This document shows positions 2,177-25,300 of a stretch of DNA of 64,000 nucleotides, piece after piece (position 1 is the first letter of the stretch; the number at the start of each line of letters is the position of its first letter). The stretch is from Massalongia carnosa (taxonomy: Eukaryota). The position numbers and the translations under genes were made by a program. The notes beneath the pieces are model-generated. The model was not told where the DNA came from, did not search any database, and was given only the letters and a program-made list of their open reading frames with translations. The DNA lies in assembly GCA_965645245.1 (NCBI GenBank), contig OZ287070.1:2914001-2978000 (forward strand). Reading direction: 5' to 3'.

Positions 2177-2402
2177 TGTAGGGGAGGCTTCCTTCGGTTC
2201 TTCTAGGTTCGTTTTCTGGGTTTGGTTCGGTGCGGTTCGGTTCGGTTCGGTGCCAACGCAGTGGCGGTCTCTGGTTCTTCTGGTTTCGTTTCGGTTCGTC
2301 GTTTTGGTTCAGGTTCGGTTTCTTTTCAGTGTCTTCGTGGTTCAGGTGAGTTCTTTTATATCCCTCACGAAGGATAGCGAAGGTAAATGATCTTGATTGT
2401 AA

Positions 2403-2683: not shown

Positions 2684-3219
2684 TCGCCCGTAGCCCTTCT
2701 TCTCACTCGGTTTCTTCTGGTTTTACCCCAGGACCCCAACGTGTCTTATAAGCATTCATTCGTCTTCATTAATAACGAGTCAGTTTAAAACGAGCTCATT
2801 TCATACAATAATACATACTTCTTCTCTGCAGGCTTCTTGTGTTTCGCTTGTTCGAGCTCTATTTTTTTTTCTGTCTTCGATAACCGCAGCATTATGTTTA
2901 GAAGATATGAGTTTGTTATGTGATTATGTAAGGTAGCTGTCGTCGATTCTTTTCAACCGCTATTAAACTAAAATTTATCTACAAAGAAAGAAAAGAATTA
3001 TTGTGCGCGACTCGCTAGAAATATCTGCGTCGAGTGTCGCGCTAGCCTCGCGCGATCCCGTGATCCCTCTTTCTATCTCGGCTGGCGCTAAGCCTAACCG
3101 GTTACCTCGAACACCTCTAAGGTCAACCTTCTATCTCTATGTCAGGCTAGGACCCTGACACTATCCCCCCCTTCTATGGGCGAGGTCTCCGAAGCGCTAA
3201 GTGGCAGGCGCCCTGTCAG

Positions 3220-6200: not shown

Positions 6201-7152
6201 CCCCTGGTTTCCTAACTAGAAGAACGGGGGCTGCTGCGCTTGAAGAGCTAGGACGGATGAAACCTTTTTCCAGATGTTCATCGATGTATTTTTTAACTGC
6301 TTCCAGTTCTTGTTCTGACATGGGCTTGTAGTTCCTCACGTACGGAGCCTCTTTTCCTGCTTCGAGGATTATCTGGTGATCCTCCTTTCGATGTTCGGGC
6401 AGTTCGTCTGCCTTGTGCTTCATGAAGACATCTATTACGCTGTGATAAGCTGCTGGGACTCTCTTCAACAACTCCTCTCGGGTGTATTCCGGTTTTCCCT
6501 TCATGAACTTGTCGTAATCTCCCGATGTCACTGCTCCGGTGATAGTTGCGCATAAGGCCTTCTTTGTTTCTCGAGGAACCCATAGGTAACCCTCGTGATC
6601 CTTCTTTCTGACCATTCGAAAGAAGTGTTTTGCGTTGACTGGGAGAACTTCGATATCTTCTTTAGGCTCGGTCCTATTCTTAACCCTGCCTCCCACAGCG
6701 AATTCGGTGCAACTTATCCCTCGTGTAAGACATCCCTTTTCGAGGCAATCAGATGAGTTGAACTTCATCGTTCTCTCTTTCCAATTGATCATTGGGTTGT
6801 GCGTTTGCAGCCATCCATCCCCTAGAATGACTGCGTACGCTTCTAGTTTTGCTAAATAACATAAGACTTGCTCTTCGTGATCTCCAATTTTCACGTCGAT
6901 CAAGGCGGCCTTCGAGAGGAGCTGTACTACCTCTCCATTTCCCAAAGTAAGTTTCACCTTCTTATCCAGTTTGAAGGTGTTCAATTTGTGTTTACGCACA
7001 AAGGATTCGTCAATGAGTTCAGCTTCACTTCCATTATCGATCAGTAAACGGGTTTTAATTCCAGCTATGCTAGTTTTAAAAACTAAATGCTTGCCCTCGA
7101 TTTTCTTTTCAGTATCGCGGACAGCACAAGTAGAGACCCTAATCATCTTCAT
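3220..7152 (-). CDS. pol: Pol polyprotein (PR-RT-RNase H-IN-chromodomain); true start via -1 frameshift from gag
   Basis: LIDNGSE, YLDD, ETDSSD/DKELLAI, HHCC zinc finger, DGQTE, C-terminal EEWEVLEIVDCR chromodomain. Confidence 0.97.
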   Translation of the reverse strand: MKMIRVSTCAVRDTEKKIEGKHLVFKTSIAGIKTRLLIDNGSEAELIDESFVRKHKLNTFKLDKKVKLTLGNGEVVQLLSKAALIDVKIGDHEEQVLCYLAKLEAYAVILGDGWLQTHNPMINWKERTMKFNSSDCLEKGCLTRGISCTEFAVGGRVKNRTEPKEDIEVLPVNAKHFFRMVRKKDHEGYLWVPRETKKALCATITGAVTSGDYDKFMKGKPEYTREELLKRVPAAYHSVIDVFMKHKADELPEHRKEDHQIILEAGKEAPYVRNYKPMSEQELEAVKKYIDEHLEKGFIRPSSSSAAAPVLLVRKPGGGLRFCVDYRALNSITIKNRYPIPLINETLGKLSQAKKFTKLDVISAFNRMRMKEGHEWLTAFNTRYGQFEYLVMPFGLCNAPGTFQSFINDTVREYLDVFCTAYLDDVLIYSENEEEHSEQVLIVLTRLKEKGLQVDIDKCEFSVTKVKYLGLIVTTEGIKMDPEKIEAILKWETPGSVKDVQAFLGFANFYRRFISRFSQRTRPLTELTKGEQITTKSGKKRTKYNSFVWSEDCQKAFEDLKNAFTTAPVLAHYDPALETWVETDSSDFVSAGVLSQMHDGVLKPVAYFSKKMTPAECNYMIYDKELLAIVKSFEVWRPEVASAAPDKPVKVYTDHKNLEHFMTTKQLNRRQARWAEFLSEFNFKIMYRPGKQGEKPDTLTRRSQDLPKGFEDIREQHQFQTLLQEHQLDDDIRKALAVVFCANTIDDDNDNDQDDRSVATEEDATESEEPNAEHTPVTDVTESSITKTLEELIEEAYEKDETVQDIIAAKKKELRKLPLNLIKRGIKLAMGDLKLENDKLYVKGRLYVPDHESLQLHLLQKHHEPPLQGHPGYKSMYQIMRENYFWFDMKEHCKRYAVNCSVCRRSKAYNDKKQGLLNPLPIPNRKWMDVSLDFVEFLPECRRRNRVYQHILVIVDRLTKRRLYEPLTSLSTDELMDAMSRRLFSSYGFPISTVNDRGSQLTAHLWKRVCERYGVRIKFSSAHHPETDGQTENANKVMKNYLRAYVSYTQDNWVDYLSDAEFAANNHVNVSTGMTPFFADHGFHPRCGIEPPGTYEGKGRAEILHADKIIERQEAMRTWLRDQLAWAQEEQTRHANKGRQPHPEYKVGDMVYVNAKHFAFERPSRSLSFKNAGPWKIIRIIDNKAYELEIPDQLKNVDLTSIFHPWKLHLAPSNPFPGQVLPPGPPIAIVENDEEEAHEEWEVLEIVDCRETRKFGVQYKATFVGNWDEWNANPYWQSWTDFKNSKDKILQYHREHPHKPKPPEDLTETG

Positions 7153-7220
7153 TTCAGTGTCACTATTCTCACTAACAACCTCCTTATTTGTACGCCCTTG
7201 ATCGCGATTTTGATCAAGGA

Positions 7221-8867
7221 CTAGACTTTTCCCGCATCAGATTCCGTTCCTGAATCTGTTTCTACAGTTCCCATGGTGCTCAGATTCTTGTCCTTGTATT
7301 GAGGACAGATGGTATCGTGTCCTCGATGTCCCGATCCCCTACATGCCCAGCATCGGCGTTGGCGGGAGAGGGACTCACGATCGTCATCCTTCAGCTTCTT
7401 TGGGTTCGGGTCTGGATCGTACCACGTGCCTACCCAACCGGCCGGCTTGACTATTGTTGGCGTCAGCTTCGCGTTTGGCCGATCGTCCGATTTTCTGGAG
7501 TTGATCTGGTTGGTGGAGGCTGAGACGGACTTTCCACCGGAGGATTGGTTTGAGGACTGTCCACCGGAGAAGTTGCTTCGTTGGCCGGAGTTCTTCGTTG
7601 CAGCTGGTTTATCGGGGCGGGGAAAGTGATGTGCCACATCTTTGCGGCGGTCTTCGATTCTTCGTGCTTCGTCAAGTAGAGGGCGGAAATCGGTAAAGAC
7701 GGAACCCATAAGAGAGCTGGAGATGCTAGGCTTTAACGTCACGAGGAACTTTTCAATTCGCTCGTCAACGGGAGTTTTGGCTTTCTGCCATAGCTTGAAG
7801 ATTCGGTGGTAATACTCGCTGACGCTTTCGCCCCCTTTCATGGTGACGGTGAGGAGTTCTTTCTTGGCGTCGCGGCTCTGGAGGTGGATGCCCATGTAGT
7901 GTTCTATCTCTTCGAACAAAGCATCGGCCGATAGTGAGTCTCCCATATCCGGTACCCAAGAATGCATAGCCCCGAAGATCGGCGCTTCCATTTGAGACAG
8001 CGCGTAACCGACCTTTTCACTCTCGTCGGCGTAGAGGGGTGCGTCTGTCTTCAGTTTGTTGCGGACGGAGTACGCCCAAGGGCTATACTCCTCCGAGTCT
8101 TCACCTTTTAGTGGCTTGCTAGGGTTTATACCACGAGGTCGCCAATTCTGAGGATTGTAGTTAGTGCTTGAGGTAGCAACGGTGTCTTCCCGTTGCTGAC
8201 GTGGTGTTTCCTGTGTTTCCGCAAACTGGCGGATCAAGGAGTCTCTGTCTTTCTGTAATCTCTCTTTTGCTAGAGTCGTTGTCTCCAATTCGATATCTCT
8301 ATGCGAGAGTTCTTCTTGCGCGAGAAGGGCCTCTCGTTCGGCATCATCCTTTTCTGCGATGAGACGTTCATTTACTTGCTTGTAACGTCTGTTGATCTTT
8401 TTTGCTTCGGCAAGCTTCTCCTGATCGTTCTGCATAGAGATGTATTTTTCGAATAGGGTCTTATCGTATTCGAGCGCTCTCGCGAGAAAATCGTACCATC
8501 GGGGTCCTTCTTTCTCATCTCGCAAGATGCTCTGCAATTCTTTCAAGTTGTGTGCCACGACGAGAGACGGATGCTCCGCTGCATCCTGTTCGTAGTATGG
8601 GTGGTTGGAGACGTCTATTGTTTGGAAAATTTCCTTTTCTTTTCCGCGCCCTGCTCTTGAGGTGTTTTCCCACGTCCCCTCCGTGGTTTCTCTCATTTGC
8701 TCGTTCTGCAGTAGCTCGGAGTCTTCGAACGTTCCTGGCATACTGCTATCCGAACGACACGAATGGCGGGAGGCGGAACGAGCGCGGGTGTTAAATGCTG
8801 GACCAGTCTGAGCCTCCGTGGGAGGGGCTCCGACTTTTCTTGCTGTCATGGGCGTTTTTGAGCTCAT
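7221..8867 (-). CDS. gag: Gag of element A copy 1
   Basis: 548 aa ORF upstream of pol with coiled-coil, capsid-like region and knuckle CWACRGSGHRGHDTIC. Confidence 0.93.
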   Translation of the reverse strand: MSSKTPMTARKVGAPPTEAQTGPAFNTRARSASRHSCRSDSSMPGTFEDSELLQNEQMRETTEGTWENTSRAGRGKEKEIFQTIDVSNHPYYEQDAAEHPSLVVAHNLKELQSILRDEKEGPRWYDFLARALEYDKTLFEKYISMQNDQEKLAEAKKINRRYKQVNERLIAEKDDAEREALLAQEELSHRDIELETTTLAKERLQKDRDSLIRQFAETQETPRQQREDTVATSSTNYNPQNWRPRGINPSKPLKGEDSEEYSPWAYSVRNKLKTDAPLYADESEKVGYALSQMEAPIFGAMHSWVPDMGDSLSADALFEEIEHYMGIHLQSRDAKKELLTVTMKGGESVSEYYHRIFKLWQKAKTPVDERIEKFLVTLKPSISSSLMGSVFTDFRPLLDEARRIEDRRKDVAHHFPRPDKPAATKNSGQRSNFSGGQSSNQSSGGKSVSASTNQINSRKSDDRPNAKLTPTIVKPAGWVGTWYDPDPNPKKLKDDDRESLSRQRRCWACRGSGHRGHDTICPQYKDKNLSTMGTVETDSGTESDAGKV

Positions 8868-9316
8868 GACTGGATACTGGAAGTGGGAAAGCTTGATTCC
8901 CTGGCTCTGAAAATTCTGGAAGTTCTGGAATTTGGATCGGTTTGGATTCGCACAAACGATCAGTCTGGAAGGTTACTGGAACGGGTCTTCACCCTAACTG
9001 GAAGGAAGTTGCTGGAACGGGACCTCGTCCCTACTGGAAGTTCTGGAAGAAAGAATACTGATAGGTAGGTAGATAAATTGTGTAAGGTAGCTGTCGTCGA
9101 TTCTTTTCAACCGCTATTAAACTAAAATTTATCTACAAAGAAAGAAAAGAATTATTGTGCGCGACTCGCTAGAAATATCTGCGTCGAGTGTCGCGCTAGC
9201 CTCGCGCGATCCCGTGATCCCTCTTTCTATCTCGGCTGGCGCTAAGCCTAACCGGTTACCTCGAACACCTCTAAGGTCAACCTTCTATCTCTATGTCAGG
9301 CTAGGACCCTGACAAT

Positions 9317-12300
9317 ATGTTCACTGATACCCTTATAGTTAAGGAGACAGGGCAACAAATATGTGAAATAAAGGAGCACTATGGGCTCTCAATCATAGAA
9401 TATAACCCTGAATCCATAGATATAGGGTTTGCTAACTCAGTGCAGCCACGCGATACGTCAAAAGCAACTCCATGGAAATGGCATCTTCGGCTCGGTCATT
9501 GCCGGCCAGAGGTGATTGACCAGCTAAAGAAGATCGATGAAGTGACAGTTTCAAAAGGCGTAGGGGGTGAAAACGCACCTAGGACCATTCAATGCGAAAC
9601 GTGTGCAGTCTCCAAAATGCATAGAGTCATCAATAAAGCTCCGTCAGGGCGTGCCATCAAGCCATATCAGGTGCTTCATTTTGACCTAACCATCAATGAT
9701 AAGGGGTTCGATGGAACGAGCTGTATAGCTCATTTTACGGACGAATTTACCTCATATGTATGGGTTTATCCATTGAATGATCATAAGGAAAAGACCCTAT
9801 TGCCCATCTTCAAAAGCTTGATCAATCAATGCGATAGAGCTGGCATTTCCATTAATTCAATGGTAACCACGATTCGCACGGGGCAAGAAACATCAATAGG
9901 AAAAGCCCTAGAAGCATGGATCAGTCAGCAAGGCATAGAATGGTCATGGTCAGCAAAGAATACCCCTGAGCAAAATGGCGTTTCGGAGCGTTTCGGAGCC
10001 CTATTAACTGAAAAAGCTCGATGCATCAGGGAATATGCAAAAATGCCAGAAGACCTGTATCCGGAGTGCTATTTAGCTGCAGCCCATCTGATGAATCGAA
10101 CCCCTAATAAAGCTCTGGAATGGGACTCCCCATTGGTCAAATTGCAGAAACTGACCAATCCGGGTCAATCAGTCAGATACGAGCTGGCTCATCTAAAAGT
10201 GTTTGGTTGCAAGGCGTATCCATTGCTAAAAGGGGCCGATGCTCCTCCCAAAAGCAATAAGTTGAAACCTAGGGCATTTGTTGGCTATTTGGTTGGCTAT
10301 GATTCAACCAATATCTTCAGGATATGGAATCCAGAAAAGGGAGATGTCAGCGGTTATAGAGACGTCATATTCAACGAAGATGAGCTTTATAGCGCCTATA
10401 CGTCGAATAAGGAGCTATTGCTAAAGGAGACTGAAAAAGCGAGCTTTATAGAGTTTCATTTAGTTGAACCACGCCCCGCATTTCAGGAGATAGATAGTGA
10501 GGAAGAAGAATGGCTAGACTTATCAGTCAATAAGCGTATAGAGCAATTGACCATAGAAGATAACTCACCTAGTCAGGACGAAATACAGGAGAAAATAACT
10601 CCCTCATCAACGCCCATGCAACTGGAAACGCCAATAGAAACACCTGAACCAGATATCAGCCCTAATGTCTCCATAGATAAAAGAAGGGCCAAAAAGGTGA
10701 GGGCATCAACAATTGACCCTCCACAACTCCCGCAAACGGGCCGAACGCCCCTCAATGTGACGGAAATAGAGCAATCATCAGGAAAAAGGAGCGATAGGAT
10801 AAATGAGGCAAACGTTATAGAGGGAAAACGTACTAGGAAACCAAACCCTAGATACGCTGCAAATGGAGCTTGGTCAGCAGAAGAAATGTCGAAATTCCCT
10901 CAATTTCATACAGCGTTTATGGCGGGGACGGCGAGAATGACTAATCAGCTCCGAACTGATGATTTGCCCGACCCCCCATCTCATTGGCGAGCTCTGCTAA
11001 GGCATCCCTATGCAGATGAGTTCATGAAAGCAGCTAACGTTGAATGGGAGGCACTTTTCCACAAAGAAACATGGGAAATAGTTGATCAAGATGAGGCTAT
11101 ACAGCCAATATTGCCCCTCAAATGGGTTTTCACCTATAAGACTGATTCGGATGGCTATTTGGCAAAGTTCAAAGCACGTCTAGTGGTTAGAGGTGACCTA
11201 CAGCAAGATAATGCTCAAGATGTTTATGCAGCTACATTAGCCTTCAAGGTGTTTAGGGCATTAATGGCATTAGTTGCTGCATTCGGGCTGAAAACGAGGC
11301 AGTTGGACGCTATTAACGCCTTTCTAAACGCTCACAATGACGAGCCTATTTACTGCTTTTTGCCTGATGGTTTTAAGCTTAGAAAGAAGGTGCTAAAAGT
11401 GAAAAAAGCGCTATATGGTCAAAGAAAATCACCCCTTCTATGGCTACGAATGCTAATAGGCAAATGCATAGAACTAGGTTTAAAACAAGTGCCAGGCGAA
11501 CCATGCCTATTCTATACGGAGGGAATCATACTATTCTTCTATGTGGACGACATAGTAATGGCGTATCGGCCCGAAAAAGAAGCCGAAGTCGAGGAATATG
11601 TGCAACGTTTCATGAAGATGATCGAAATACGGGATATGGGTCCATTAACCTATTTTCTAGGCGTACGGGTCATTTATAACATAGAAGAAAAGACGATCCA
11701 CTTGATTCAGGACTCCTATATGAACAAATTAGCCAAGGAGTATGACATAGATGAAAAGTCGGAGGCTAAAACACCTCTAACGCCCATATTCAATGAAGAA
11801 CTGGCGCCATATAAGGGGGAGGTGGATCCGGCCAGAATGCATCTATATAGGAAGAAAGTTGGATCAATATGCTACCCAGCTATTATGACTCGGCCAGATA
11901 TAGCAAAATCAGCTTCAAAATTAGCTGAATATCTGACCAACCCGGGACCTAGTCATATGAGGGCTGCAGACCATTGCCTACGTTATCTATATGGGACGAA
12001 ATATCTGGGAATCCAGTACTCGGCCAAAGGGGGCGGTGAAATCACTACTATGGCAAATCATGGACCGGTTCCGGCTAATAAGCAGGTTTTTGAGGCAACG
12101 GCTGATGCATCCTATGCAAATAACCCAGATAGGAAAAGCTCCGAGGGCTATACATTCAAGCTATTTGGTGGGATGATTGACTGGGCCGCTAGGAAGCAAC
12201 TGACCGTGACCACGTCAACCACTGAGGCCGAGTTATTGTCTATGCTTCATGCGGGTAAAGAGCTCATATGGTGGATACATCTATTTGAAAAGCTACAATT

Positions 12301-12622
12301 TAACCCGGATCAAGATATAGTTATCTATAACGATAACCTACAGACAATTCGCATTTTAACCTCCGAAATGGGAAAAACTGATACTAAATTGAGGCATATA
12401 GACGTCGCCCAATGCTGGCTTAGGCAATCTGTGCAAAGGGGGGAATTATGTGTTGACTATGTGCCGACCAATCAGATGGTCGCAGATGGTTTAACCAAGA
12501 TCCTACCTCCTCAAAAGCATCAAAATTTCGTCAAGCTATTAGGGCTAGTCAATGCCATGGACCTGGTCAACAATCAGAAGAAATTGGCCAATCAGAAGAA
12601 GGGAAATACGGCCACAAATTGA
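9317..12622 (+). CDS. pol: Copia B polyprotein, C-terminal part (GAG-pre-integrase, IN, RT, RNase H); N-terminus lies at 26602..33521
   Basis: WHLRLGH, TPEQNGVSER, KARLVVRG, LYGQRKSP, YVDD, ADASYA, MVADGLTK. Confidence 0.93.
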   Translation: MFTDTLIVKETGQQICEIKEHYGLSIIEYNPESIDIGFANSVQPRDTSKATPWKWHLRLGHCRPEVIDQLKKIDEVTVSKGVGGENAPRTIQCETCAVSKMHRVINKAPSGRAIKPYQVLHFDLTINDKGFDGTSCIAHFTDEFTSYVWVYPLNDHKEKTLLPIFKSLINQCDRAGISINSMVTTIRTGQETSIGKALEAWISQQGIEWSWSAKNTPEQNGVSERFGALLTEKARCIREYAKMPEDLYPECYLAAAHLMNRTPNKALEWDSPLVKLQKLTNPGQSVRYELAHLKVFGCKAYPLLKGADAPPKSNKLKPRAFVGYLVGYDSTNIFRIWNPEKGDVSGYRDVIFNEDELYSAYTSNKELLLKETEKASFIEFHLVEPRPAFQEIDSEEEEWLDLSVNKRIEQLTIEDNSPSQDEIQEKITPSSTPMQLETPIETPEPDISPNVSIDKRRAKKVRASTIDPPQLPQTGRTPLNVTEIEQSSGKRSDRINEANVIEGKRTRKPNPRYAANGAWSAEEMSKFPQFHTAFMAGTARMTNQLRTDDLPDPPSHWRALLRHPYADEFMKAANVEWEALFHKETWEIVDQDEAIQPILPLKWVFTYKTDSDGYLAKFKARLVVRGDLQQDNAQDVYAATLAFKVFRALMALVAAFGLKTRQLDAINAFLNAHNDEPIYCFLPDGFKLRKKVLKVKKALYGQRKSPLLWLRMLIGKCIELGLKQVPGEPCLFYTEGIILFFYVDDIVMAYRPEKEAEVEEYVQRFMKMIEIRDMGPLTYFLGVRVIYNIEEKTIHLIQDSYMNKLAKEYDIDEKSEAKTPLTPIFNEELAPYKGEVDPARMHLYRKKVGSICYPAIMTRPDIAKSASKLAEYLTNPGPSHMRAADHCLRYLYGTKYLGIQYSAKGGGEITTMANHGPVPANKQVFEATADASYANNPDRKSSEGYTFKLFGGMIDWAARKQLTVTTSTTEAELLSMLHAGKELIWWIHLFEKLQFNPDQDIVIYNDNLQTIRILTSEMGKTDTKLRHIDVAQCWLRQSVQRGELCVDYVPTNQMVADGLTKILPPQKHQNFVKLLGLVNAMDLVNNQKKLANQKKGNTATN

Positions 12623-13235
12623 ATCGGCCAAAAGCACTAGAAATCCAGGTAAATGTAAGACGTATGCTTCTACTCAGAGGGCGTGTTGGTCACGTGAATG
12701 GGGTGTCTCAATAATGTATGTTATTGATCTATACCCTTAGAATAAGGTGGGCATCGACCTCTTTATGCTACAGACGTGTCTCCCCCTAAGACTCCCTTAT
12801 CGGATAGCCCCCAGCTATCTGATTGGTCCAAATGGCTCCCGGCCCCTTTGGGCGGTTAGTGCCATCCGACATGGGTTTCCAGCCGTCCCCCTCGCCAGCC
12901 GTCCCCCTGAGACGGCATGTGGCCGACAGCGGAATCAGCCCATTAGGGTCGGGCCGGGTTCGGCGGCCGAGTCCATGCTGATGCCCCTTTTCCGTATCCT
13001 TCTCCGTAGTCTCTATGGCAGGTCCTGACATTATCCTCCCCCTAGGGCTCATGTCGCAGGAGGCTTCGACTCACGTGATATCTTCTTTTCGTTGTTGGTG
13101 ATATTCTTTGTTGTCGGATGCCCTCGTAATGCCAGTAATTCGAGCATAAATAGCCACTTGGCCTGTCTATCTCCCCTCAGTAGTCCCCAATCCATGACTT
13201 ACTTTTCATCAGTTCAATCCTCCAATTTCCCAATT

Positions 13236-13795
13236 ATGTCTGATGTACCACCCCCCGCCGCCAGTCGCCGTCGGCCACCCCGAGCGTACGATGTCCATTT
13301 GCCCGACTTTCCTCCCCCTGCTGCAGCGGTGCGGGTGCCTCCCAAATGGGTCGGCCCCACTTCGGAGGCTTCTCTCTGCCATCGGTGTTCCCAACACAAT
13401 CCTGAACTTAATTTCAACTGCACCACCGATAACCAGCCTCGGGGAAGTGCGCTGATTGCATTCGTCGAAAGGAGGTTTGTCGCCCGATCCCAGTTCCTTT
13501 TCGGCGGACGGTCCTTCGGTTGCTGTAAGAGGCAACCGCCATCAACAACCTGCCGACCCCAAATCGGGCCCGGTTCGCTGCTCTCGCTGCCAAGCATGAG
13601 CGATATGTCGCCCGTGTGGCCATTTGGGAGCGCGCCCGTGCCAAGGCCTTGAAAACCGACAGCGTGGAGGGACTAGATGCCCTTGCGCAGATCCGACGGC
13701 AGGCCTTTGAGACCGACGCCCTACTTCGGTGGGAAAAGGGGCTTCCCGTGACCGTCCCGGAGGGTGAGGAACAGGTGTCGGATCATGAGGGGTAG
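13236..13795 (+). pseudogene. Antisense accessory ORF of element D with a Zn2Cys6-like six-cysteine cluster (one frameshift, one stop)
   Basis: CHRC-x10-C, then after a -1 shift near 13444 KCADCIRRKEVC; TAA at 13526; helical-looking C-terminus to TAG at 13793..13795. Confidence 0.55.
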
Positions 13796-13895
13796 CTAGC
13801 TTTCTTTTTAGCAATAATCAAAGCTGTTTACTTAACTGTGTCTTAGGTCGATAAGATAAGATTATATTTTTCGCATGCCCGGTATGGGAAAAGAT

Positions 13896-16800
13896 CTATT
13901 TGCTTATCTTTCTTCTCTTTTCCCCGCTTTTCGACGGGTTCGATGGGTATGTCCGATGATAAATCCTAATTAGGTCTTGTGACCCTTCCATGTCTTCCAA
14001 TGACAGCCATTGATTGTCCGAATCCGGATATCCTTTCCATTTGACCAGATATTGCAGTTTCCCGTATCGGATTCGACTGCTCAGTACCTCCTCCACCTCG
14101 TATTGCTCCTCGCCGTCGACCTCGATGGCCGGGGGGAGCTCAGGACCTCTTGCTGAGTCTTCATTGTATGGTTCTAGAAGGTTGACGTGAAAGACGTCGT
14201 GGACGCCTTTTAGTAGCGGCGGTAGTTTCAGACGATACGTTTGCTTTCCTATAACCTTGGTTATCTCATAAGGACCGTAGTATTTATAGTCCAGTTTCTT
14301 TGAAGGCCTAGTAGATGAGATGTTTTTAGCATTAAGTAGTACCTTGTCCTTGACCCGATAGGTCATCGGGGTGTGCTTCTGATTGTAGTACTTAGCTTGA
14401 TCTGATGATGCTTTTTGCAGCAGAGTTTCGAGACGACGTCTCTTTTCGAGCGTTTCTATCGCCCTGTCTTTCGCTGCTGGCGTTTCCTTTTCGGTTTTCG
14501 TTATTTCCTCCTCCCACCTCGGTGCCTCTCCGAAAAGGGCCTCGAATGGGGACATTTTCAGTACGCTATGCCGACTGTTGTTGTAGGCGTATTCTGCCAT
14601 CGGTAGCCAGTACACCCAGTCGTCTTGTTGATAATTGACGTAGCAACGAAGGTACTGTTCCAACGTCTGGTTTTGACGTTCCGTTTGCCCGTCGGTCTGG
14701 GGGTGAAAGGCCGTACTGTAATTGAGCCGTACCCTCAGATGATAGCAAAAGTTGGACCAGAAATTCGAGGTGAACAGGCTTCCCCTGTCGGTCACCAGCG
14801 AGACCGGCATTCCAAAGCGGGTGAAGACTTCTTCTACCAGGGCGTCGGCAAGGTTCTCCGCCGTCCAGTCTTTCCTGGCCGCGATGTATCGGGCGTACTT
14901 TGTATACCTGTCAACAATTACTAGTATTGCATCAAAAATAAGGCTGCGGCGGATGCTCGGGGGCAAATCCGTAATGAAATCTAGTGTCCAATTCTGTCTT
15001 GGACCCAGAGGTACTGGCAAGGATTCTAATTCGCCGAATGGTCTATGCCTGACTGCCTTGACTTGATGACAGCGAGTACAGGTATCAACGTAGTGCTTGA
15101 CATCAGGGGCCATTCGGGGCCAGTAGTATTTTCGTTGGAGAAGTTCTGTCGTTCTGAGGGTACCGAAATGCCCTGCGTTTGGATCATCATGATTCCTTTT
15201 TAGCAGTTCGTTTCTCAGCAATCCAGGCGGTATATACCACCTGTTATTTCGACAGAGGATGTCATCTTTGAGATGCCAGAGCCCGTCTTCTTTCTCATCG
15301 GCAGGAAGGTCGTCTCCTGCGACCCCCTCCATTCCCTCGGTGGGCTGCCTCTGACCATCCCTTTCCTGATCCAGCTCTCCCTGCAACGACGATGCGGCGA
15401 GGGGCCGTCTTCGCTTCGCAAGGTGATCAGTCTCTTGAAGAATACGAAGGACGGTGCTGAGTTCCAGGGGGGGCGATGCAAAGGCAGCTTCCGACTCAGT
15501 CACGTCTAGGACGCGCTGGCTTAATGTGTCCGAGTCCCTCTCGGCCTCGACGAGTCGGAATCCCACAGGCTTGGAGTCAGCCGCGGTCTCGTCTGACTTC
15601 GGAGGGGCAGGCTTTTTGCCCTTTTTCTTCCCCCCCTTGGTCCTTCTCATTGCCGCCTGGATATCAGGATCCGACGCCCGTGCAGCATTCGGGGTGGTAT
15701 CCATCCCTACGACAGCAATTGAGGATTCCGTGCGCGTCTCCGGTGGAGTATTGTTGAAGACGAAGGATTCCTTCGGCCCTTGACCGACTTCATCTGAAGA
15801 AACTAATGCGTAGGCTCTCGTTTGATATACCTCGCTTTCCCCCCCGACGACCCCCTGACCCAGCAGCGTGGCCTCGTCTTGACGATGCAAGCCTGGCCCT
15901 GCGTAGTCCGGGCGTCGCGAGGGTCCATCTGCCGGATTATTCCGACCAGGTCTGTACTCGAGCTGTAGGTCTAGACTGGATAGTCTTTCCCACCAACGCG
16001 CTTCGCGTCTAGATAGTGTTTTGGTTGTGAAAAAGGTGCGAAGGTTTCCATGATCGGTGAGCACTTTGACGGGGAAGTTTGCCCCTTCAAGATAGTGTCT
16101 CCAATTTTTGCACGCTTCCACGATTGCTAACATTTCCTTCTCCCCGACCCCATAATTGATTTCTGCAGGGGTCATTTTCCGGGACCAGAAGGCGATCGGG
16201 TGCCATTGGCCCGTTTCTTCGACTAGTTGACTGAGGATTCCTGATAGGGCGAAATCTGACGCATCCGTCTCGAGCTTAATACGCCTTGCAGGATCGAAAT
16301 GCAGCAACATTGGGGCGCTAGTGAACGCGATTTTTAACGCCTCAAAAGCCCCCTTTGCCTTGTCCGTCCACACGAACTTCCCCCGGAAACGGCCTTTGTC
16401 CCCACCTTTCAGCAAGGAAGTGATTGGCGCCACTATGCGCGAGAATCCTTTGATGAAGCGTCTATAGAAGTTGGCGAATCCAAGAAAGACTTGAACTTCT
16501 CGATGAGATTTCGGCTCCGGCCATTGCGTCACCGTAAAAATTCGTCCTGGGTCCATGGCGATGCCTTTTCGGGAGAGTATGTAGCCCAGGAAGTCCAGCT
16601 CGTACGCGTGGAAGATGCATTTCGATAACTTTGCGTGTAGTTTCCATTTCCGCAATTGATCCAGAACCCATCGAACGTGGCCCGAATGCTCCTCTTCCGT
16701 CTTGGAGAAGATGAGGATGTCGTCAAGATATACTACTACGAACTGGTCGAGATTCTCTTTCAACACCTCGTGAATGAACGCTTGAAAGGAGGCGGGGGCA

Positions 16801-17975
16801 TTGACCAGTCCGAAGGGCATGACTCTATACTCAAAATGGCCATATCTACATCTGAAGGCCGTCTTCCATTCGTCCCCGGCGGCGATTCGGAGGGTGTTGT
16901 ATGCGTCCCTCAAATCCAACTTGGTGTAGATAGCCGACCCGCTGACGATGTCGAACAGCCCCTGGATCAGGGGTAGAGGGTACTTATTCTTAATCGTAGC
17001 AGCATTTAGGGCCCGATAATCGACACAGAGACGTAGACTACCATCTTTCTTCTTGGTGAATAGGATGGGCGCGCCTAGTCGTGAGGTGCTATGGGTAATA
17101 TACCCTTTTGCCAGGTTTTCGTCGATGTAGTCTTTTAGGGTTTCTAGTTCGGTGAGGGAGAGGTTATACATGGCCCGGGTCGGGGGTGGTTCGCCTTCCA
17201 GATTGATTTTATGGTCGTGGGGCCCTCGTTCTGGTAGCACTGAAGCTTTTTCATTGGAGCAGACGTCACTGTAGGATTGATACAGAGGCAGAAGTTTATT
17301 GCTAGACGTAGAGATGGCACCAACTATTGACTCCGACTCCGGGCTCCCACCGAGCACTTCCCGAATGTCTATTAGGAATGCGTCGACGCCCTCGCATTCG
17401 CAGATGTCAAAGATCTCCTGCTCACTCACCATTGCCACTACTGGGAGATTGATACTTCGATGAGGGGTTTCCTCATCGCCTACAGTGACCCCGGGACGTT
17501 CCCCTGGCAGGTCATCTCGTACTTCACCCTCAATGAGGTGGCTTTCATGGATTATCCTCCTTTCGCGCCAGCCGATGGATGGATTGGCATGACCCAACCA
17601 GGGCAAGCCCAGGATCATGTCCACCCCATACATGTCTGACGCGACGAATGCCTGCTCGGCCACTCGCTCAAGACCATTGTCATCAACAACCCCGACGCGC
17701 AGGGCATGATCAAAATAAGTCTGGAAGGGGGTTCCATCGAGAGTTTTCAACCCAGATGGTGGAGGGGAGCCGGGAGGATCTCGAACACCTACCTCATTTA
17801 GCCAGGTTTGAGCGATAAGGTTCCAAGTTGCTCCGCAGTCGATCATTGCTCGGACACGATGCTGACTGTTGTCGTAATATAGGAAAACCGTTGAGAAGAG
17901 GTGGCGGCATGGGGATTTCCTCATTTGCCGGGCCAATACGACGGAGGCAACGTCTATTGGCCCCGACCTTTTCCC
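13896..17975 (-). CDS. pol: Pol of element D (PR-RT-RNase H-IN-chromodomain), entered by -1 frameshift
   Basis: MIDCGAT, YLDD, ETDASD, DGQTER, EQYEVEEVLSSR...YLVKWKGY chromodomain; open frame. Confidence 0.95.
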   Translation of the reverse strand, partial: GKRSGPIDVASVVLARQMRKSPCRHLFSTVFLYYDNSQHRVRAMIDCGATWNLIAQTWLNEVGVRDPPGSPPPSGLKTLDGTPFQTYFDHALRVGVVDDNGLERVAEQAFVASDMYGVDMILGLPWLGHANPSIGWRERRIIHESHLIEGEVRDDLPGERPGVTVGDEETPHRSINLPVVAMVSEQEIFDICECEGVDAFLIDIREVLGGSPESESIVGAISTSSNKLLPLYQSYSDVCSNEKASVLPERGPHDHKINLEGEPPPTRAMYNLSLTELETLKDYIDENLAKGYITHSTSRLGAPILFTKKKDGSLRLCVDYRALNAATIKNKYPLPLIQGLFDIVSGSAIYTKLDLRDAYNTLRIAAGDEWKTAFRCRYGHFEYRVMPFGLVNAPASFQAFIHEVLKENLDQFVVVYLDDILIFSKTEEEHSGHVRWVLDQLRKWKLHAKLSKCIFHAYELDFLGYILSRKGIAMDPGRIFTVTQWPEPKSHREVQVFLGFANFYRRFIKGFSRIVAPITSLLKGGDKGRFRGKFVWTDKAKGAFEALKIAFTSAPMLLHFDPARRIKLETDASDFALSGILSQLVEETGQWHPIAFWSRKMTPAEINYGVGEKEMLAIVEACKNWRHYLEGANFPVKVLTDHGNLRTFFTTKTLSRREARWWERLSSLDLQLEYRPGRNNPADGPSRRPDYAGPGLHRQDEATLLGQGVVGGESEVYQTRAYALVSSDEVGQGPKESFVFNNTPPETRTESSIAVVGMDTTPNAARASDPDIQAAMRRTKGGKKKGKKPAPPKSDETAADSKPVGFRLVEAERDSDTLSQRVLDVTESEAAFASPPLELSTVLRILQETDHLAKRRRPLAASSLQGELDQERDGQRQPTEGMEGVAGDDLPADEKEDGLWHLKDDILCRNNRWYIPPGLLRNELLKRNHDDPNAGHFGTLRTTELLQRKYYWPRMAPDVKHYVDTCTRCHQVKAVRHRPFGELESLPVPLGPRQNWTLDFITDLPPSIRRSLIFDAILVIVDRYTKYARYIAARKDWTAENLADALVEEVFTRFGMPVSLVTDRGSLFTSNFWSNFCYHLRVRLNYSTAFHPQTDGQTERQNQTLEQYLRCYVNYQQDDWVYWLPMAEYAYNNSRHSVLKMSPFEALFGEAPRWEEEITKTEKETPAAKDRAIETLEKRRRLETLLQKASSDQAKYYNQKHTPMTYRVKDKVLLNAKNISSTRPSKKLDYKYYGPYEITKVIGKQTYRLKLPPLLKGVHDVFHVNLLEPYNEDSARGPELPPAIEVDGEEQYEVEEVLSSRIRYGKLQYLVKWKGYPDSDNQWLSLEDMEGSQDLIRIYHRTYPSNPSKSGEKRRKISK

Positions 17976-19057
17976 GGCCGGCGGGACGATCCCCGCGGCG
18001 ACGGCCGGGACCGACCTTCGAATTGAAGGTGCCCCATTTTCCCGCAGTTCCAGCAATCCTTATCCGACCGATTTCCTTTTGGTCTCGTAGGGGGCGGGGC
18101 TTCTTGATCTTGCTGATCTTCCTGATCATCCAGCTTTCTTTTGTTTGATTAGTGGTTCGGATTAATCACGGGTGCCTGTGGAGCGTCAGCGGGTCCATCT
18201 TCTTCAGGTTTGGGGGTTGAGGAAGATTGATTGTTTCGATTTTGATTCCGGCTTTTATTGAAAGTCTTCTTCCATCCATCGGGTTTTGGCTCAACCCTTT
18301 CCGCAATCCTCACCGCCTCGACCAGTTCCGCCCTGGTCGTCCCCTGACTACCCGCCCGGATCACAGCCGTCTTCAAGTAGTCGTGCACGCTGTGTAGGAG
18401 GTTGGAATGCTTCTGCATTTCCGTGGGGGGTTCGGGGAGTTGAGCTTCTAGGCTTTCCAGATATGTGACAAAATCGGACACGGTCTGCCCCTGGAATTGG
18501 CGCAATTTCTTCAGTTGTCCCCCCAGATCCATCAAGCGTAGATGCTTCGGTTTGAGCTTTTCCTGGAGGAAGTCAGCAAAGATTTTCCAGGTGAGCTCAC
18601 CTTCCGCCGCCTTCGTCGTCGCTTCCTTCTCACGGTGCCAATCGTCGGCAGGGGCTCCGGATAGATAGTTCTCGGCGTAGAGGACCTGTGCCGAGGGCGA
18701 TTCGTATGTGACTGGCTTCTGCAGAAAAGTTCTCTTGCAGTCACGTAGGAATGTGTCAAACGCCCGCTGATTGTCGCCGGCGTAGGTCGTCGGGTCTACG
18801 GAACGAAGAGACCTTTCCAGGGCCAGCGGGTCGACGGGTTTGGTTCGATCCGTGAGAGTGGGGAAGCCGGCGGCCTTTTCCTTCTTCAGGTCCTCCAGCG
18901 TTTTGGCTAGGTGCGCCTGCTTCCGTTCAGCCTCAATGGCCTCAACTTCTCGCTGCATGTCTGCCATGGTGGCGGAAATTAGGGTCTCGTCCGGGTTAGG
19001 TGTCGGGTTCGCCCCGGAAGCGGTGGACGAAGACATTTGCGATCTAGTTAATACCAT
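17954..19057 (-). pseudogene. gag: Gag of element D with premature TAA at 18149..18151
   Basis: Frame continues past the stop into CWNCGKMGHLQFEG (knuckle with last Cys lost), then GGGAAAA and TAG at 17954..17956. Confidence 0.85.
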
Positions 19058-20660
19058 AGGTTGAAATGTCGAGGTAATGAGGAATGACCAACGGGCTCCC
19101 TAGAAGGTTGGATAGATCAAAGTGTAAGACGTATGCTTCTACTCAGAGGGCGTGTTGGTCACGTGAATGGGGTGTCTCAATAATGTATGTTATTGATCTA
19201 TGCCCTTAGAATAAGGTGGGCATCGACCTCTTTATGCTACAGACGTGTCTCCCCCTAAGACTCCCTTATCGGATAGCCCCCAGCTATCTGATTGGTCCAA
19301 ATGGCTCCCGGCCCCTTTGGGCGGTTAGTGCCATCCGACATGGGTTTCCAGCCGTCCCCCTCGCCAGCCGTCCCCCTGAGACGGCATGTGGCCGACAGCG
19401 GAATCAGCCCATTAGGGTCGGGCCGGGTTCGGCGGCCGAGTCCATGCTGATGCCCCTTTTCCGTATCCTTCTCCGTAGTCTCTATGGCAGGTCCTGACAG
19501 TAAAACATGGAAATTTTCACCTAATATAGGTTTTTCGGTCATGGCAGCTTTGGTCAAAGCTGGGGGGTATGTCAGGCGATTAGGGGTCACATGACCCCCC
19601 ATGGGTCACATGACCCACGAACCACTATGAGATATCCCTCAGTTAGCTAGCCTAGACCTCCCATAGATCAATACACACCACTCCTTTTCACTCATATTCC
19701 ACATTAGCCCATACAGCTTGATAAAGAGCTTAGGTTATGGATTGTCCTATCCTATATAGATCAATGATCAAGCACTTCAAAAGTGTAGCATTTAGTCTAC
19801 CCTTTGACCCGACCTTACCTATTTTGTACCTCTATTGTGACTATCACGTTGTGTAGCCCCTGTGGATCCCCTCTTCCAGTAGTGAATGCCTGCTGGGAGA
19901 CGGTCTCCCCGTTTCAGGTCAAGACGAAAATCATCTCAACTGATCATCAGGGCAAAAAGCCTCAGAAACTGTATATCGTTATAATCCTCCGCGTAGGAGG
20001 CAATGGCCCAAAAAAACGGCCTCAAGAGTAGAATCGTACAATTGGTCCCAAAATGCCGGCAATGGCGGATAAACACCACCAAAAGTGTATGGCGTAACGT
20101 CGAAAATTACCGGAGGAAGCGGGCTATCTACGCTGTATACAAACGGGGCCTTAATCAAGCTCGTTTCAAATGACTCTCACTTCGTAAACTTGCAACCAAT
20201 TTTCCTTATAATCTGTCAGGGTCCTAGCCTGACATAGAGATAGAAGGTTGACCTTAGAGGTGTTCGAGGTAACCGGTTAGGCTTAGCGCCAGCCGAGATA
20301 GAAAGAGGGATCACGGGATCGCGCGAGGCTAGCGCGACACTCGACGCAGATATTTCTAGCGAGTCGCGCACAATAATTCTATTCTTTCTTTGTAGATAAA
20401 TTTTAGTTTAATAGCGGTTGAAAAGAATCGACGACAGCTACCTTACACAATTTATCTACCTACCTATCAGTATTCTTTCTTCCAGAACTTCCAGTAGGGA
20501 CGAGGTCCCGTTCCAGCAACTTCCTTCCAGTTAGGGTGAAGACCCGTTCCAGTAACCTTCCAGACTGATCGTTTGTGCGAATCCAAACCGATCCAAATTC
20601 CAGAACTTCCAGAATTTTCAGAGCCAGGGAATCAAGCTTTCCCACTTCCAGTATCCAGTC

Positions 20661-22307
20661 ATGAGCTCAAAAACGCCCATGACAGCAAGAAAAGTCGGAG
20701 CCCCTCCCACGGAGGCTCAGACTGGTCCAGCATTTAACACCCGCGCTCGTTCCGCCTCCCGCCATTCGTGTCGTTCGGATAGCAGTATGCCAGGAACGTT
20801 CGAAGACTCCGAGCTACTGCAGAACGAGCAAATGAGAGAAACCACGGAGGGGACGTGGGAAAACACCTCAAGAGCAGGGCGCGGAAAAGAAAAGGAAATT
20901 TTCCAAACAATAGACGTCTCCAACCACCCATACTACGAACAGGATGCAGCGGAGCATCCGTCTCTCGTCGTGGCACACAACTTGAAAGAATTGCAGAGCA
21001 TCTTGCGAGATGAGAAAGAAGGACCCCGATGGTACGATTTTCTCGCGAGAGCGCTCGAATACGATAAGACCCTATTCGAAAAATACATCTCTATGCAGAA
21101 CGATCAGGAGAAGCTTGCCGAAGCAAAAAAGATCAACAGACGTTACAAGCAAGTAAATGAACGTCTCATCGCAGAAAAGGATGATGCCGAACGAGAGGCC
21201 CTTCTCGCGCAAGAAGAACTCTCGCATAGAGATATCGAATTGGAGACAACGACTCTAGCAAAAGAGAGATTACAGAAAGACAGAGACTCCTTGATCCGCC
21301 AGTTTGCGGAAACACAGGAAACACCACGTCAGCAACGGGAAGACACCGTTGCTACCTCAAGCACTAACTACAATCCTCAGAATTGGCGACCTCGTGGTAT
21401 AAACCCTAGCAAGCCACTAAAAGGTGAAGACTCGGAGGAGTATAGCCCTTGGGCGTACTCCGTCCGCAACAAACTGAAGACAGACGCACCCCTCTACGCC
21501 GACGAGAGTGAAAAGGTCGGTTACGCGCTGTCTCAAATGGAAGCGCCGATCTTCGGGGCTATGCATTCTTGGGTACCGGATATGGGAGACTCACTATCGG
21601 CCGATGCTTTGTTCGAAGAGATAGAACACTACATGGGCATCCACCTCCAGAGCCGCGACGCCAAGAAAGAACTCCTCACCGTCACCATGAAAGGGGGCGA
21701 AAGCGTCAGCGAGTATTACCACCGAATCTTCAAGCTATGGCAGAAAGCCAAAACTCCCGTTGACGAGCGAATTGAAAAGTTCCTCGTGACGTTAAAGCCT
21801 AGCATCTCCAGCTCTCTTATGGGTTCCGTCTTTACCGATTTCCGCCCTCTACTTGACGAAGCACGAAGAATCGAAGACCGCCGCAAAGATGTGGCACATC
21901 ACTTTCCCCGCCCCGATAAACCAGCTGCAACGAAGAACTCCGGCCAACGAAGCAACTTCTCCGGTGGACAGTCCTCAAACCAATCCTCCGGTGGAAAGTC
22001 CGTCTCAGCCTCCACCAACCAGATCAACTCCAGAAAATCGGACGATCGGCCAAACGCGAAGCTGACGCCAACAATAGTCAAGCCGGCCGGTTGGGTAGGC
22101 ACGTGGTACGATCCAGACCCGAACCCAAAGAAGCTGAAGGATGACGATCGTGAGTCCCTCTCCCGCCAACGCCGATGCTGGGCATGTAGGGGATCGGGAC
22201 ATCGAGGACACGATACCATCTGTCCTCAATACAAGGACAAGAATCTGAGCACCATGGGAACTGTAGAAACAGATTCAGGAACGGAATCTGATGCGGGAAA
22301 AGTCTAG
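20661..22307 (+). CDS. gag: Gag of element A copy 2
   Basis: Same translation as 7221..8867. Confidence 0.93.
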   Translation: MSSKTPMTARKVGAPPTEAQTGPAFNTRARSASRHSCRSDSSMPGTFEDSELLQNEQMRETTEGTWENTSRAGRGKEKEIFQTIDVSNHPYYEQDAAEHPSLVVAHNLKELQSILRDEKEGPRWYDFLARALEYDKTLFEKYISMQNDQEKLAEAKKINRRYKQVNERLIAEKDDAEREALLAQEELSHRDIELETTTLAKERLQKDRDSLIRQFAETQETPRQQREDTVATSSTNYNPQNWRPRGINPSKPLKGEDSEEYSPWAYSVRNKLKTDAPLYADESEKVGYALSQMEAPIFGAMHSWVPDMGDSLSADALFEEIEHYMGIHLQSRDAKKELLTVTMKGGESVSEYYHRIFKLWQKAKTPVDERIEKFLVTLKPSISSSLMGSVFTDFRPLLDEARRIEDRRKDVAHHFPRPDKPAATKNSGQRSNFSGGQSSNQSSGGKSVSASTNQINSRKSDDRPNAKLTPTIVKPAGWVGTWYDPDPNPKKLKDDDRESLSRQRRCWACRGSGHRGHDTICPQYKDKNLSTMGTVETDSGTESDAGKV

Positions 22308-22332
22308 TCCTTGATCAAAATCGCGATCAAGG
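22295..22332 (+). promoter_or_regulatory. -1 ribosomal frameshift signal (G GGA AAA plus stem CCTTGATC/GATCAAGG)
   Basis: X XXY YYZ heptamer just before the gag stop; -1 frame is open and continuous with pol. Confidence 0.8.
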
Positions 22333-22375
22333 GCGTACAAATAAGGAGGTTGTTAGTGAGAATAGTGACACTGAA

Positions 22376-25300
22376 ATGAAGATGATTAGGGTCTCTACTT
22401 GTGCTGTCCGCGATACTGAAAAGAAAATCGAGGGCAAGCATTTAGTTTTTAAAACTAGCATAGCTGGAATTAAAACCCGTTTACTGATCGATAATGGAAG
22501 TGAAGCTGAACTCATTGACGAATCCTTTGTGCGTAAACACAAATTGAACACCTTCAAACTGGATAAGAAGGTGAAACTTACTTTGGGAAATGGAGAGGTA
22601 GTACAGCTCCTCTCGAAGGCCGCCTTGATCGACGTGAAAATTGGAGATCACGAAGAGCAAGTCTTATGTTATTTAGCAAAACTAGAAGCGTACGCAGTCA
22701 TTCTAGGGGATGGATGGCTGCAAACGCACAACCCAATGATCAATTGGAAAGAGAGAACGATGAAGTTCAACTCATCTGATTGCCTCGAAAAGGGATGTCT
22801 TACACGAGGGATAAGTTGCACCGAATTCGCTGTGGGAGGCAGGGTTAAGAATAGGACCGAGCCTAAAGAAGATATCGAAGTTCTCCCAGTCAACGCAAAA
22901 CACTTCTTTCGAATGGTCAGAAAGAAGGATCACGAGGGTTACCTATGGGTTCCTCGAGAAACAAAGAAGGCCTTATGCGCAACTATCACCGGAGCAGTGA
23001 CATCGGGAGATTACGACAAGTTCATGAAGGGAAAACCGGAATACACCCGAGAGGAGTTGTTGAAGAGAGTCCCAGCAGCTTATCACAGCGTAATAGATGT
23101 CTTCATGAAGCACAAGGCAGACGAACTGCCCGAACATCGAAAGGAGGATCACCAGATAATCCTCGAAGCAGGAAAAGAGGCTCCGTACGTGAGGAACTAC
23201 AAGCCCATGTCAGAACAAGAACTGGAAGCAGTTAAAAAATACATCGATGAACATCTGGAAAAAGGTTTCATCCGTCCTAGCTCTTCAAGCGCAGCAGCCC
23301 CCGTTCTTCTAGTTAGGAAACCAGGGGGTGGCCTAAGATTCTGCGTAGATTATAGAGCCTTGAACTCCATCACCATCAAGAACAGGTATCCAATACCGTT
23401 GATAAATGAGACATTGGGAAAACTGTCGCAAGCCAAGAAGTTCACGAAACTGGATGTGATTAGCGCGTTCAATCGTATGAGAATGAAAGAAGGCCATGAG
23501 TGGCTCACAGCTTTCAATACCAGATATGGTCAGTTCGAATATCTGGTGATGCCATTCGGTCTCTGCAACGCTCCAGGGACTTTTCAAAGCTTCATCAACG
23601 ACACAGTCAGAGAATATTTAGACGTTTTCTGCACGGCGTATTTAGACGATGTCTTGATTTACAGCGAAAACGAAGAAGAGCATTCCGAACAAGTGTTAAT
23701 AGTCCTAACTCGATTGAAAGAGAAAGGACTGCAAGTGGATATAGACAAATGCGAATTCTCCGTAACGAAGGTAAAGTATCTTGGACTGATAGTCACCACC
23801 GAGGGGATAAAAATGGACCCGGAGAAAATCGAGGCGATTCTAAAATGGGAGACCCCAGGATCCGTCAAAGACGTGCAAGCATTCTTAGGCTTTGCGAATT
23901 TTTATCGACGATTTATATCGAGGTTTTCGCAACGAACGAGACCATTAACAGAGTTAACGAAGGGTGAACAAATAACAACTAAATCAGGAAAGAAACGAAC
24001 CAAGTATAACTCGTTCGTTTGGTCCGAAGATTGTCAGAAAGCCTTCGAAGATTTAAAGAATGCATTCACCACCGCTCCCGTTTTAGCACATTACGACCCG
24101 GCCCTGGAAACGTGGGTCGAGACTGACTCTTCAGATTTCGTTAGCGCCGGAGTACTCTCTCAAATGCACGACGGAGTACTGAAACCAGTGGCTTATTTCT
24201 CCAAAAAGATGACCCCTGCCGAGTGTAACTATATGATTTACGATAAGGAGCTCCTCGCAATTGTAAAGAGCTTCGAAGTCTGGCGTCCCGAAGTTGCAAG
24301 TGCTGCTCCTGACAAACCCGTTAAAGTATACACCGATCACAAGAATTTGGAGCATTTTATGACGACAAAGCAGCTAAACAGAAGACAAGCCAGATGGGCT
24401 GAATTTCTTTCCGAGTTTAATTTCAAGATAATGTATCGACCGGGGAAGCAAGGAGAAAAACCGGACACGCTGACCCGACGCTCTCAAGATCTCCCGAAGG
24501 GATTCGAAGATATCAGAGAGCAACATCAATTTCAAACGTTGTTGCAGGAGCATCAACTAGATGACGATATACGAAAAGCGTTAGCGGTCGTGTTCTGCGC
24601 AAACACGATAGACGACGATAACGATAACGATCAAGATGATCGAAGCGTAGCCACTGAGGAAGACGCAACAGAATCAGAGGAACCTAACGCAGAACATACA
24701 CCAGTGACCGACGTGACCGAGAGCTCGATAACGAAGACCTTGGAAGAACTAATAGAAGAGGCTTACGAAAAGGACGAAACGGTTCAAGACATAATAGCAG
24801 CAAAGAAGAAGGAACTGAGAAAACTCCCACTGAACCTCATAAAAAGAGGGATAAAGCTAGCCATGGGGGACCTCAAATTAGAAAACGACAAGCTGTATGT
24901 CAAAAGAAGATTATACGTACCAGATCACGAGTCATTGCAATTGCATTTACTGCAAAAGCATCACGAACCACCATTACAGGGCCATCCGGGATACAAAAGT
25001 ATGTATCAAATAATGAGAGAAAATTACTTCTGGTTCGACATGAAGGAGCACTGCAAGAGATACGCCGTGAACTGCTCAGTATGTCGTAGATCAAAAGCAT
25101 ACAACGACAAGAAGCAGGGACTGTTGAATCCTCTCCCCATCCCGAATAGAAAATGGATGGACGTATCATTGGACTTCGTTGAATTTCTTCCAGAATGCCG
25201 AAGACGGAACAGAGTCTATCAGCACATATTGGTGATAGTAGATCGTTTAACGAAAAGACGATTATACGAACCACTAACATCTCTCTCTACTGACGAACTG

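Follow-up and report, generated by a model that had tools for sequence, protein, structure and literature searches.

The inverted gypsy pair and the elements around it

The stretch analyzed here, called the window below, is 64 kb of contig OZ287070.1 from Massalongia carnosa (positions 2,914,001 to 2,978,000, forward strand). Within it lie two copies of one Ty3/gypsy long terminal repeat (LTR) retrotransposon, A1 and A2, in opposite orientation, and a Ty1/copia element, B, whose parts are distributed over both strands. Taken together, the junctions of these elements make it likely that the 10.9 kb separating the two gypsy copies has been inverted through recombination between them. The features on which this reading depends are as follows.

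2922–2926, plus strand: GATTA, half of the duplication from the gypsy insertion referred to as the GATTA insertion
2927–9314, minus strand: gypsy copy A1, with LTRs at 2927–3160 and 9081–9314, a gag open reading frame (ORF) at 8972–7221 (583 aa) and a pol ORF at 7236–3220 (1,338 aa: protease, reverse transcriptase, RNase H, integrase, SH3)
9315–9319, plus strand: ATATG, half of the duplication from the ATATG gypsy insertion, and source of the Met codon shared by two copia pieces
9315–20213, no strand: interval read as inverted, 10,899 nt, transposon DNA only
9317–12622, plus strand: C-terminal part of the copia B polyprotein (pre-integrase, integrase, SH3, RVT_2), beginning at residue 496 of the homolog P0001
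19570–19723, plus strand: copia B 3′ LTR, with a purine tract ahead of it
20209–20213, plus strand: TAATC, reverse complement of GATTA
20214–26601, plus strand: gypsy copy A2, 6,388 nt, with private differences at 20381 (5′ LTR) and 24905 (pol G872R)
26602–26606, plus strand: CATAT, reverse complement of ATATG
26602–26929, minus strand: copia B piece with the protease domain Pol_BBD, reading ...KKRGFFWDM up to 26602 and matching P0001 residues 386–496
32298–33571, minus strand: copia B leader and gag piece, its frame broken by two in-frame stops and one frame change when compared with the homolog P0080
33572–33725, minus strand: copia B 5′ LTR, followed in B orientation by a primer-binding-site-like GTTATGAGCCC

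A1 (2927–9314) and A2 (20214–26601) form inverted arms of 6,388 nt each around a spacer of 10,899 nt, and a base-by-base comparison found only two mismatches between them, corresponding to 99.97% identity. The arm ends coincide with the tips of the 234-nt LTRs (TG...CA), and the arm boundaries are unambiguous because the bases immediately outside A1 and A2 differ. The first mismatch (4623 in A1, 24905 in A2) affects pol residue 872, which is Gly in A1 and Arg in A2, and the second (9147 and 20381, respectively) is position 168 of the A2 5′ LTR. Both changes are specific to A2; at pol 872, the family representative P0121 has the residue of A1. The two LTRs of A1 are identical, and across both copies three of the four LTRs are identical, the fourth carrying a single change. 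Repeat-induced point mutation (RIP) was considered as the cause of the A1/A2 differences and rejected, as the indices reveal no RIP signature in the window (TpA/ApT 0.69–0.76; (CpA+TpG)/(ApC+GpT) 1.04–1.20).

Element A is encoded on the minus strand in A1 and on the plus strand in A2. Its 583-aa gag-like ORF carries a zinc knuckle and overlaps the 1,338-aa pol, in which Pfam domains occur in the order RVP_2, RVT_1, RT_RNaseH, Integrase_H2C2, and rve, followed by a Tf2-type SH3 and without a chromodomain. The TG...CA LTRs and the protease–reverse transcriptase–RNase H–integrase order place it in Ty3/gypsy; the 5-bp duplication that belongs with this assignment appears only after the flanks of the two copies are swapped. 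The family is marked as very young by its near-identical LTRs (0 to 1 differences in 234 nt), intact ORFs, and a 90% protein cluster with 73 member sequences, and element A is probably still active. For copia B, integrase lies ahead of RVT_2 and LTRs are present, as in Ty1/copia. The labels gypsy and copia, given in a preliminary description made from the sequence, therefore agree with Pfam domain content and order.

Exchanged duplications and a copia element on two strands

Reading the sequence directly, we found the flanks GATTA, ATATG, TAATC, and CATAT exactly where the preliminary description had placed them. In element orientation, copy 1 reads GATTA|A1|ATATG and copy 2 reads ATATG|A2|GATTA, such that the target-site duplications have been exchanged between the two copies. 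By our own arithmetic, the chance of two such crosswise 5-mer matches is about 4^-10, or roughly 1e-6. The crosswise flanks bear out the proposal that turning the intervening DNA around would give each gypsy copy a matching 5-bp duplication. That 5 bp is the local rule follows from two full-length elements nested in B, which are undisturbed and serve as internal controls, each keeping a perfect 5-bp duplication.

12654–19499, minus strand: gypsy chromovirus C, nested in B; LTRs of 377 nt with one mismatch; duplication GTAAA at 12649–12653 and 19500–19504
26930–32297, minus strand: copia D, nested in B; LTRs of 191 nt with two mismatches; duplication GATCA at 26925–26929 and 32298–32302

Within the nest, A1, A2, and B are the only elements lacking a matching duplication. 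Copia D is otherwise intact-looking, with its polyprotein split into frames of 578 and 990 aa by a single in-frame TAG (30113–30115, minus strand) directly ahead of a conserved H-x-R-x-x-H-L-G stretch in the pre-integrase region.

The second line of evidence comes from copia B, whose minus-strand frame reads ...KKRGFFWDM up to 26602 and whose plus-strand frame starts MFTDTLIV... from 9317. The B pieces were not joined beforehand and were compared separately with uninterrupted homologs from a protein search, in which 154 proteins among 7,994 scored reached E ≤ 0.001 and the best match, P0001 (1,604 aa), was 71% identical. The minus-strand piece aligned to P0001 residues 386–496 (79% identity), and the plus-strand piece aligned from residue 496 (496–694; 75% identity over its first 200 residues). 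The two pieces thus abut at a single shared Met, Met496 of P0001, and this single shared residue is what an exchanged duplication predicts, because the 5-bp ATATG includes ATG. All four homologs that were fetched (P0080, P0037, P0059, and P0072) are uninterrupted at this point, and P0080, which is 96% identical to B, runs straight through it: ...GFFWDMFTDTLIV... The ATATG breakpoint therefore shows neither loss nor gain of sequence, the pieces meeting at one residue of both P0001 and P0080. The B frame is likewise continuous over the D insertion site when compared with P0080.

Domain content gives the same picture. By Pfam, the minus-strand piece (26928–26602) carries the protease barrel Pol_BBD, and the plus-strand piece (9305–12622) contains, in order, gag_pre-integrs, rve, SH3, and RVT_2, which is the order expected of copia once the two are read together. 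The B LTRs at 19570–19723 (plus strand) and 33572–33725 (minus strand) differ at 2 of 154 positions (98.7% identical) and now face each other; they become direct repeats once the interval is flipped, and their opposite strands uphold the preliminary description on this point. Its further proposal that the flip rejoins copia B in frame holds at the junction itself (Met496 of P0001, and P0080) and does not extend to an intact B, gag being broken and a matching duplication absent. Copia D was tried as a reference within the window for the B junction and dropped: BLASTP with the 109-aa minus-strand piece gave no match to it, and the plus-strand piece is 27% identical to the D pol.

These data bear directly on the proposal that there is no inversion at all, in which neither gypsy insertion would have produced a proper duplication and two different copia copies would have supplied the copia pieces. 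Irregular junctions do occur in the nest, given that copia B itself lacks a matching duplication. Such an origin would nevertheless require two chance crosswise 5-mer matches, together with two independent copia fragments that happen to meet at one codon, share precisely the five bases ATATG, and carry LTRs that are 98.7% identical. The crosswise flanks, the P0001 alignments, and the uninterrupted homologs effectively refute this proposal, and we give it next to no weight.

Probable origin of the present arrangement

We consider it likely, on the sequence in hand, that 9315–20213 was truly inverted by one reciprocal homologous exchange between A1 and A2 after their independent insertion. The preliminary description had proposed a 10.9-kb inversion by ectopic recombination between the 6.4-kb inverted repeats, and this is supported by the exchanged duplications, the rejoining of copia B at the level of single residues, and the inverted copia LTRs. 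Homologous copies stand in opposite orientation, one at each breakpoint, with arms of 6,388 nt and two mismatches. Two copies of one young Ty3/gypsy element would have inserted independently, in opposite orientation and ~11 kb apart, into a nest of transposons in a filamentous fungus, one at GATTA, ~0.5 kb past the copia B 3′ LTR, and the other at ATATG in the protease-coding part of B. A later single reciprocal homologous exchange between the inverted 6.4-kb copies would then have flipped the 10.9 kb, either by an intrachromatid crossover or by repair of a double-strand break templated on the other copy. The outcome would be the present arrangement, in which each gypsy copy is a hybrid with one flank from each insertion, B lies on two strands, and the B LTRs face each other. 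We infer that the exchange took place in the organism, by homologous recombination, somewhere within the 6.4 kb. An inverted pair of this length, 99.97% identical and 11 kb apart, should be a good recombination substrate, which makes the flipped state unsurprising. LTR retrotransposons do not excise their chromosomal copies, and aberrant transposition is no candidate mechanism for such an element.

The inverted interval holds the B pol piece, element C, and a unique stretch of 485 nt, and nothing else.

19724–20208, no strand: unique 485-nt stretch U between the B 3′ LTR and the GATTA site, with neither an open frame nor a relative in the rest of the window

The inversion consequently affects no host gene, and it looks neutral because the interval consists of transposon DNA only. 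Pfam scanning of 13 of the 27 frames of ≥90 aa overlapping the interval found no recombinase; two of the 13 contained retroelement domains only and 11 had no match, and the 14 frames left unscanned are 91–109 aa long and were mostly read as overlapping the large ORFs. The interval is not a programmed invertible segment with a site-specific recombinase: its repeats are whole retrotransposons, and the scanned frames hold no recombinase.

The most serious alternative, raised already in the preliminary description, is an assembly artifact, in which the genome has the uninverted order and the unique 10.9 kb was placed backward between the near-identical inverted 6.4-kb repeats during assembly. A wrong orientation between reverse-complemented repeats yields the same picture as a real inversion, with exchanged flanks and neither loss nor gain of sequence, and since two mismatches in 6,388 nt are all that separates the arms, reads longer than ~6.5 kb are needed to decide. 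False inversions are on record in finished bacterial genomes (bioRxiv 10.1101/2022.07.06.499059), and in Candida albicans one reference orientation is described as giving no product by polymerase chain reaction (PCR) (PMC6591007). On the other side, the window contains no N and crosses both 6.4-kb copies and a 3.2-kb tandem array with a repeat unit of 126 bp, and A1 and A2 stay distinct at their two private differences instead of being collapsed. Because of these properties, the window appears to come from a long-read assembly with reads commonly spanning 6.4 kb, which points away from an artifact and is not proof. We regard an artifact as unlikely, while still giving it a real share of the probability, and the 6.4-kb inverted pair is in any case a flag for assembly quality control.

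Several further points weigh against a true inversion or limit what it explains. The arrangement comes from one assembly. Continuity over the GATTA site has no comparison sequence: neither 2309–2926 nor 19724–20208 has a relative elsewhere in the window, neither contains a spanning ORF, and the absence of deletion or duplication is a result for the ATATG breakpoint. The two differences between the copies, both private to A2, distinguish no parental copies, and chimerism of A1 and A2 and the crossover point therefore carry no markers. Finally, a single inversion leaves the whole locus unexplained, for the duplication of copia B is not restored by it.

We had expected the flip to restore a duplication around B, and this expectation was rejected: CTTAT precedes the 5′ LTR and AAGAG (19724–19728) follows the 3′ LTR. 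By its proteins and LTRs B belongs to Ty1/copia, and its present flanks are not those of one simple insertion; given that B has no matching duplication even after the flip, the nest probably underwent at least one rearrangement besides the inversion. B is moreover a dead copy, its gag departing from P0080 by one frame change and two stops in frame. Two more elements are nested in B. The B 5′ LTR abuts an LTR of an older relative of element A, which lacks its first ~20 nt at the junction (33718–33737).

33726–45323, plus strand: A′, older relative of A (about 87–92% identical), its 5′ LTR cut off where B begins, interrupted by a MULE at 37650–42817

The missing ~20-nt start of the A′ LTR was sought beyond the B 3′ LTR (19724–20208) and is absent there, and nowhere else in the window does an A′ LTR start adjoin a B LTR. 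The last 8 nt of the B LTR (GCCTGACA, plus strand) are also present in the A′ LTR at the junction, and the flanks of B might possibly go back to a microhomology-mediated deletion at the shared GCCTGACA or to exchange of one B copy with another.

An inversion by exchange between A1 and A2 also raises the matter of whether it is finished. Reversion, which the preliminary description had suggested in calling the segment possibly still flippable, would be mechanistically possible because the substrate remains, at 99.97% identity. Both orientations might therefore coexist through appreciable flipping in culture or in the population, the assembly then representing the majority isomer or an arbitrary one. 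The intact substrate, 6.4 kb with an 11-kb spacer, would permit this, and repeat-flanked segments of C. albicans are described as occurring in both orientations within and between isolates (PMC6591007 and PMC12047244). However, a single sequence says nothing on heterogeneity, and with no recombinase in the scanned frames, flipping would depend on rare general recombination; we hold coexistence to be very improbable as an account of the assembled arrangement. The related proposal of a live two-state structure, in which general recombination flips the 10.9 kb often enough for isomers to coexist in an isolate or segregate in a population, with repeated exchange and conversion keeping the copies near-identical, seems to us only slightly less improbable.

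The surrounding nest and comparison with known systems

The transposon nest takes up the whole 64 kb and includes, besides the elements above, a further gypsy fragment at 1–2308, MULEs, a split solo LTR, and a fragment similar to Pif1. Its transposon proteins have their closest named relatives in ascomycetes at 35–60% identity, including Aspergillus, Talaromyces, Purpureocillium, Pochonia, and Berkeleyomyces, which suggests that the host is a filamentous ascomycete. Several transposon families in the window have intact ORFs and near-identical LTRs, so that the genome appears to tolerate young repeats. No tRNA genes that might be insertion targets were detected in the window.

At the left end, 1–2926 (minus strand) belongs to another gypsy-like element, with protease at 3–956 and gag at 1331–2308, that runs off the window; A1 sits in its 5′ region. 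The MULE at 37650–42817, inside A′, has MULE and FAR1 domains and terminal inverted repeats of 97 nt that are 97% identical. Another MULE ORF on the opposite strand, together with a second inverted-repeat pair (40000–40146 and 42490–42614, 83%), suggests that it may be nested or composite. A 1,030-nt insertion (45396–46425) splits a solo LTR of element C (45337–46748; 99% identical to the C LTRs) and has an inverted partner, 85% identical, at 50836–51855; with 46847–47060 and 50319–50533, the two make up long inverted arms that enclose a 692-aa ORF (47172–49250) for which there was no Pfam match. A fragment of a Pif1 helicase 2B domain at 55075–55755 is possibly a Helitron remnant.

At the right end of the window, three adjoining minus-strand frames make up an NLR-like gene (57521–63001): patatin at 62144–63001, NB-ARC at 61422–62117, and a 1,311-aa TPR frame at 57521–61456. 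The TPR tandem array (57539–60727) consists of 25.3 units of 126 bp (42 aa) at 95% identity, a uniformity that suggests ongoing shuffling of units. The 6.4-kb gypsy pair could seed further rearrangements in this repeat nest, ~31 kb from the NLR-like gene.

Unique segments between long identical inverted repeats exist as two isomers in plastid genomes and in the yeast 2-micron plasmid with FLP, and both flip at high frequency, the 2-micron plasmid by means of a dedicated recombinase. In contrast, the interval described here has no recombinase gene in its scanned frames, and a single arrangement is present in the sequence. If the two-state structure proposed above were true, it would be a nuclear, transposon-built analog of the plastid inverted-repeat isomers.

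The inverted misassemblies described by Greenberg and Shomorony (bioRxiv 10.1101/2022.07.06.499059) present an identical picture in silico, a unique segment reversed between near-identical inverted repeats, and are artifact rather than biology, in bacterial genomes. A closer biological parallel is found in C. albicans, where Todd et al. (2019) report long inverted repeats with potential inversions between them of ~4.1 to 102.6 kb, some validated by PCR, as well as inverted-repeat pairs ~11 kb apart at copy-number breakpoints, and propose intrachromosomal nonallelic recombination as the mechanism (PMC6591007). These repeats are likewise fungal, kilobases in length, and >98% identical, with lengths and spacers in the same range (PMC6591007; see also PMC12047244). 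In that diploid yeast, most of the repeats are duplications containing ORFs or belong to centromeres, and both orientations were detected by PCR (PMC6591007), whereas here the repeats are whole LTR retrotransposons known from one sequence.

Exchanged duplications are a published diagnostic of ectopic recombination between inverted transposon copies (PMC2775673 and PMC2603318). Lee et al. (2008) used mismatched duplications to find the ancestral state of L1- and Alu-mediated inversions between human and chimpanzee, and the logic is the same: recombined elements are hybrids with mismatched duplications, and matching duplications mark the ancestral state (PMC2603318). Those elements are non-LTR and the inversions are fixed species differences confirmed by PCR and an outgroup (PMC2603318), in contrast to the single sequence considered here. 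Delprat et al. (2009) lay out the expectations of ectopic recombination and contrast them with those of aberrant transposition (PMC2775673). In their account, the Galileo inversions of Drosophila buzzatii, such as 2z3, likewise have opposite copies at both breakpoints, exchanged duplications, and junctions without deletion or duplication, and nearby secondary transposon insertions retain intact duplications, as C and D do here (PMC2775673). For Galileo, the chimerism of the copies and the uninverted chromosome have both been demonstrated (PMC2775673), whereas the present case involves an LTR retrotransposon with 5-bp duplications and an inversion of 10.9 kb known from one sequence. The event at this locus is thus of a well-known kind, with the textbook signature of exchanged target-site duplications and no new mechanism. 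Its value would lie in being a tidy, internally controlled example of an inversion mediated by transposons, in which the breakpoints are placed to the base and uninterrupted paralogs confirm the empty site.

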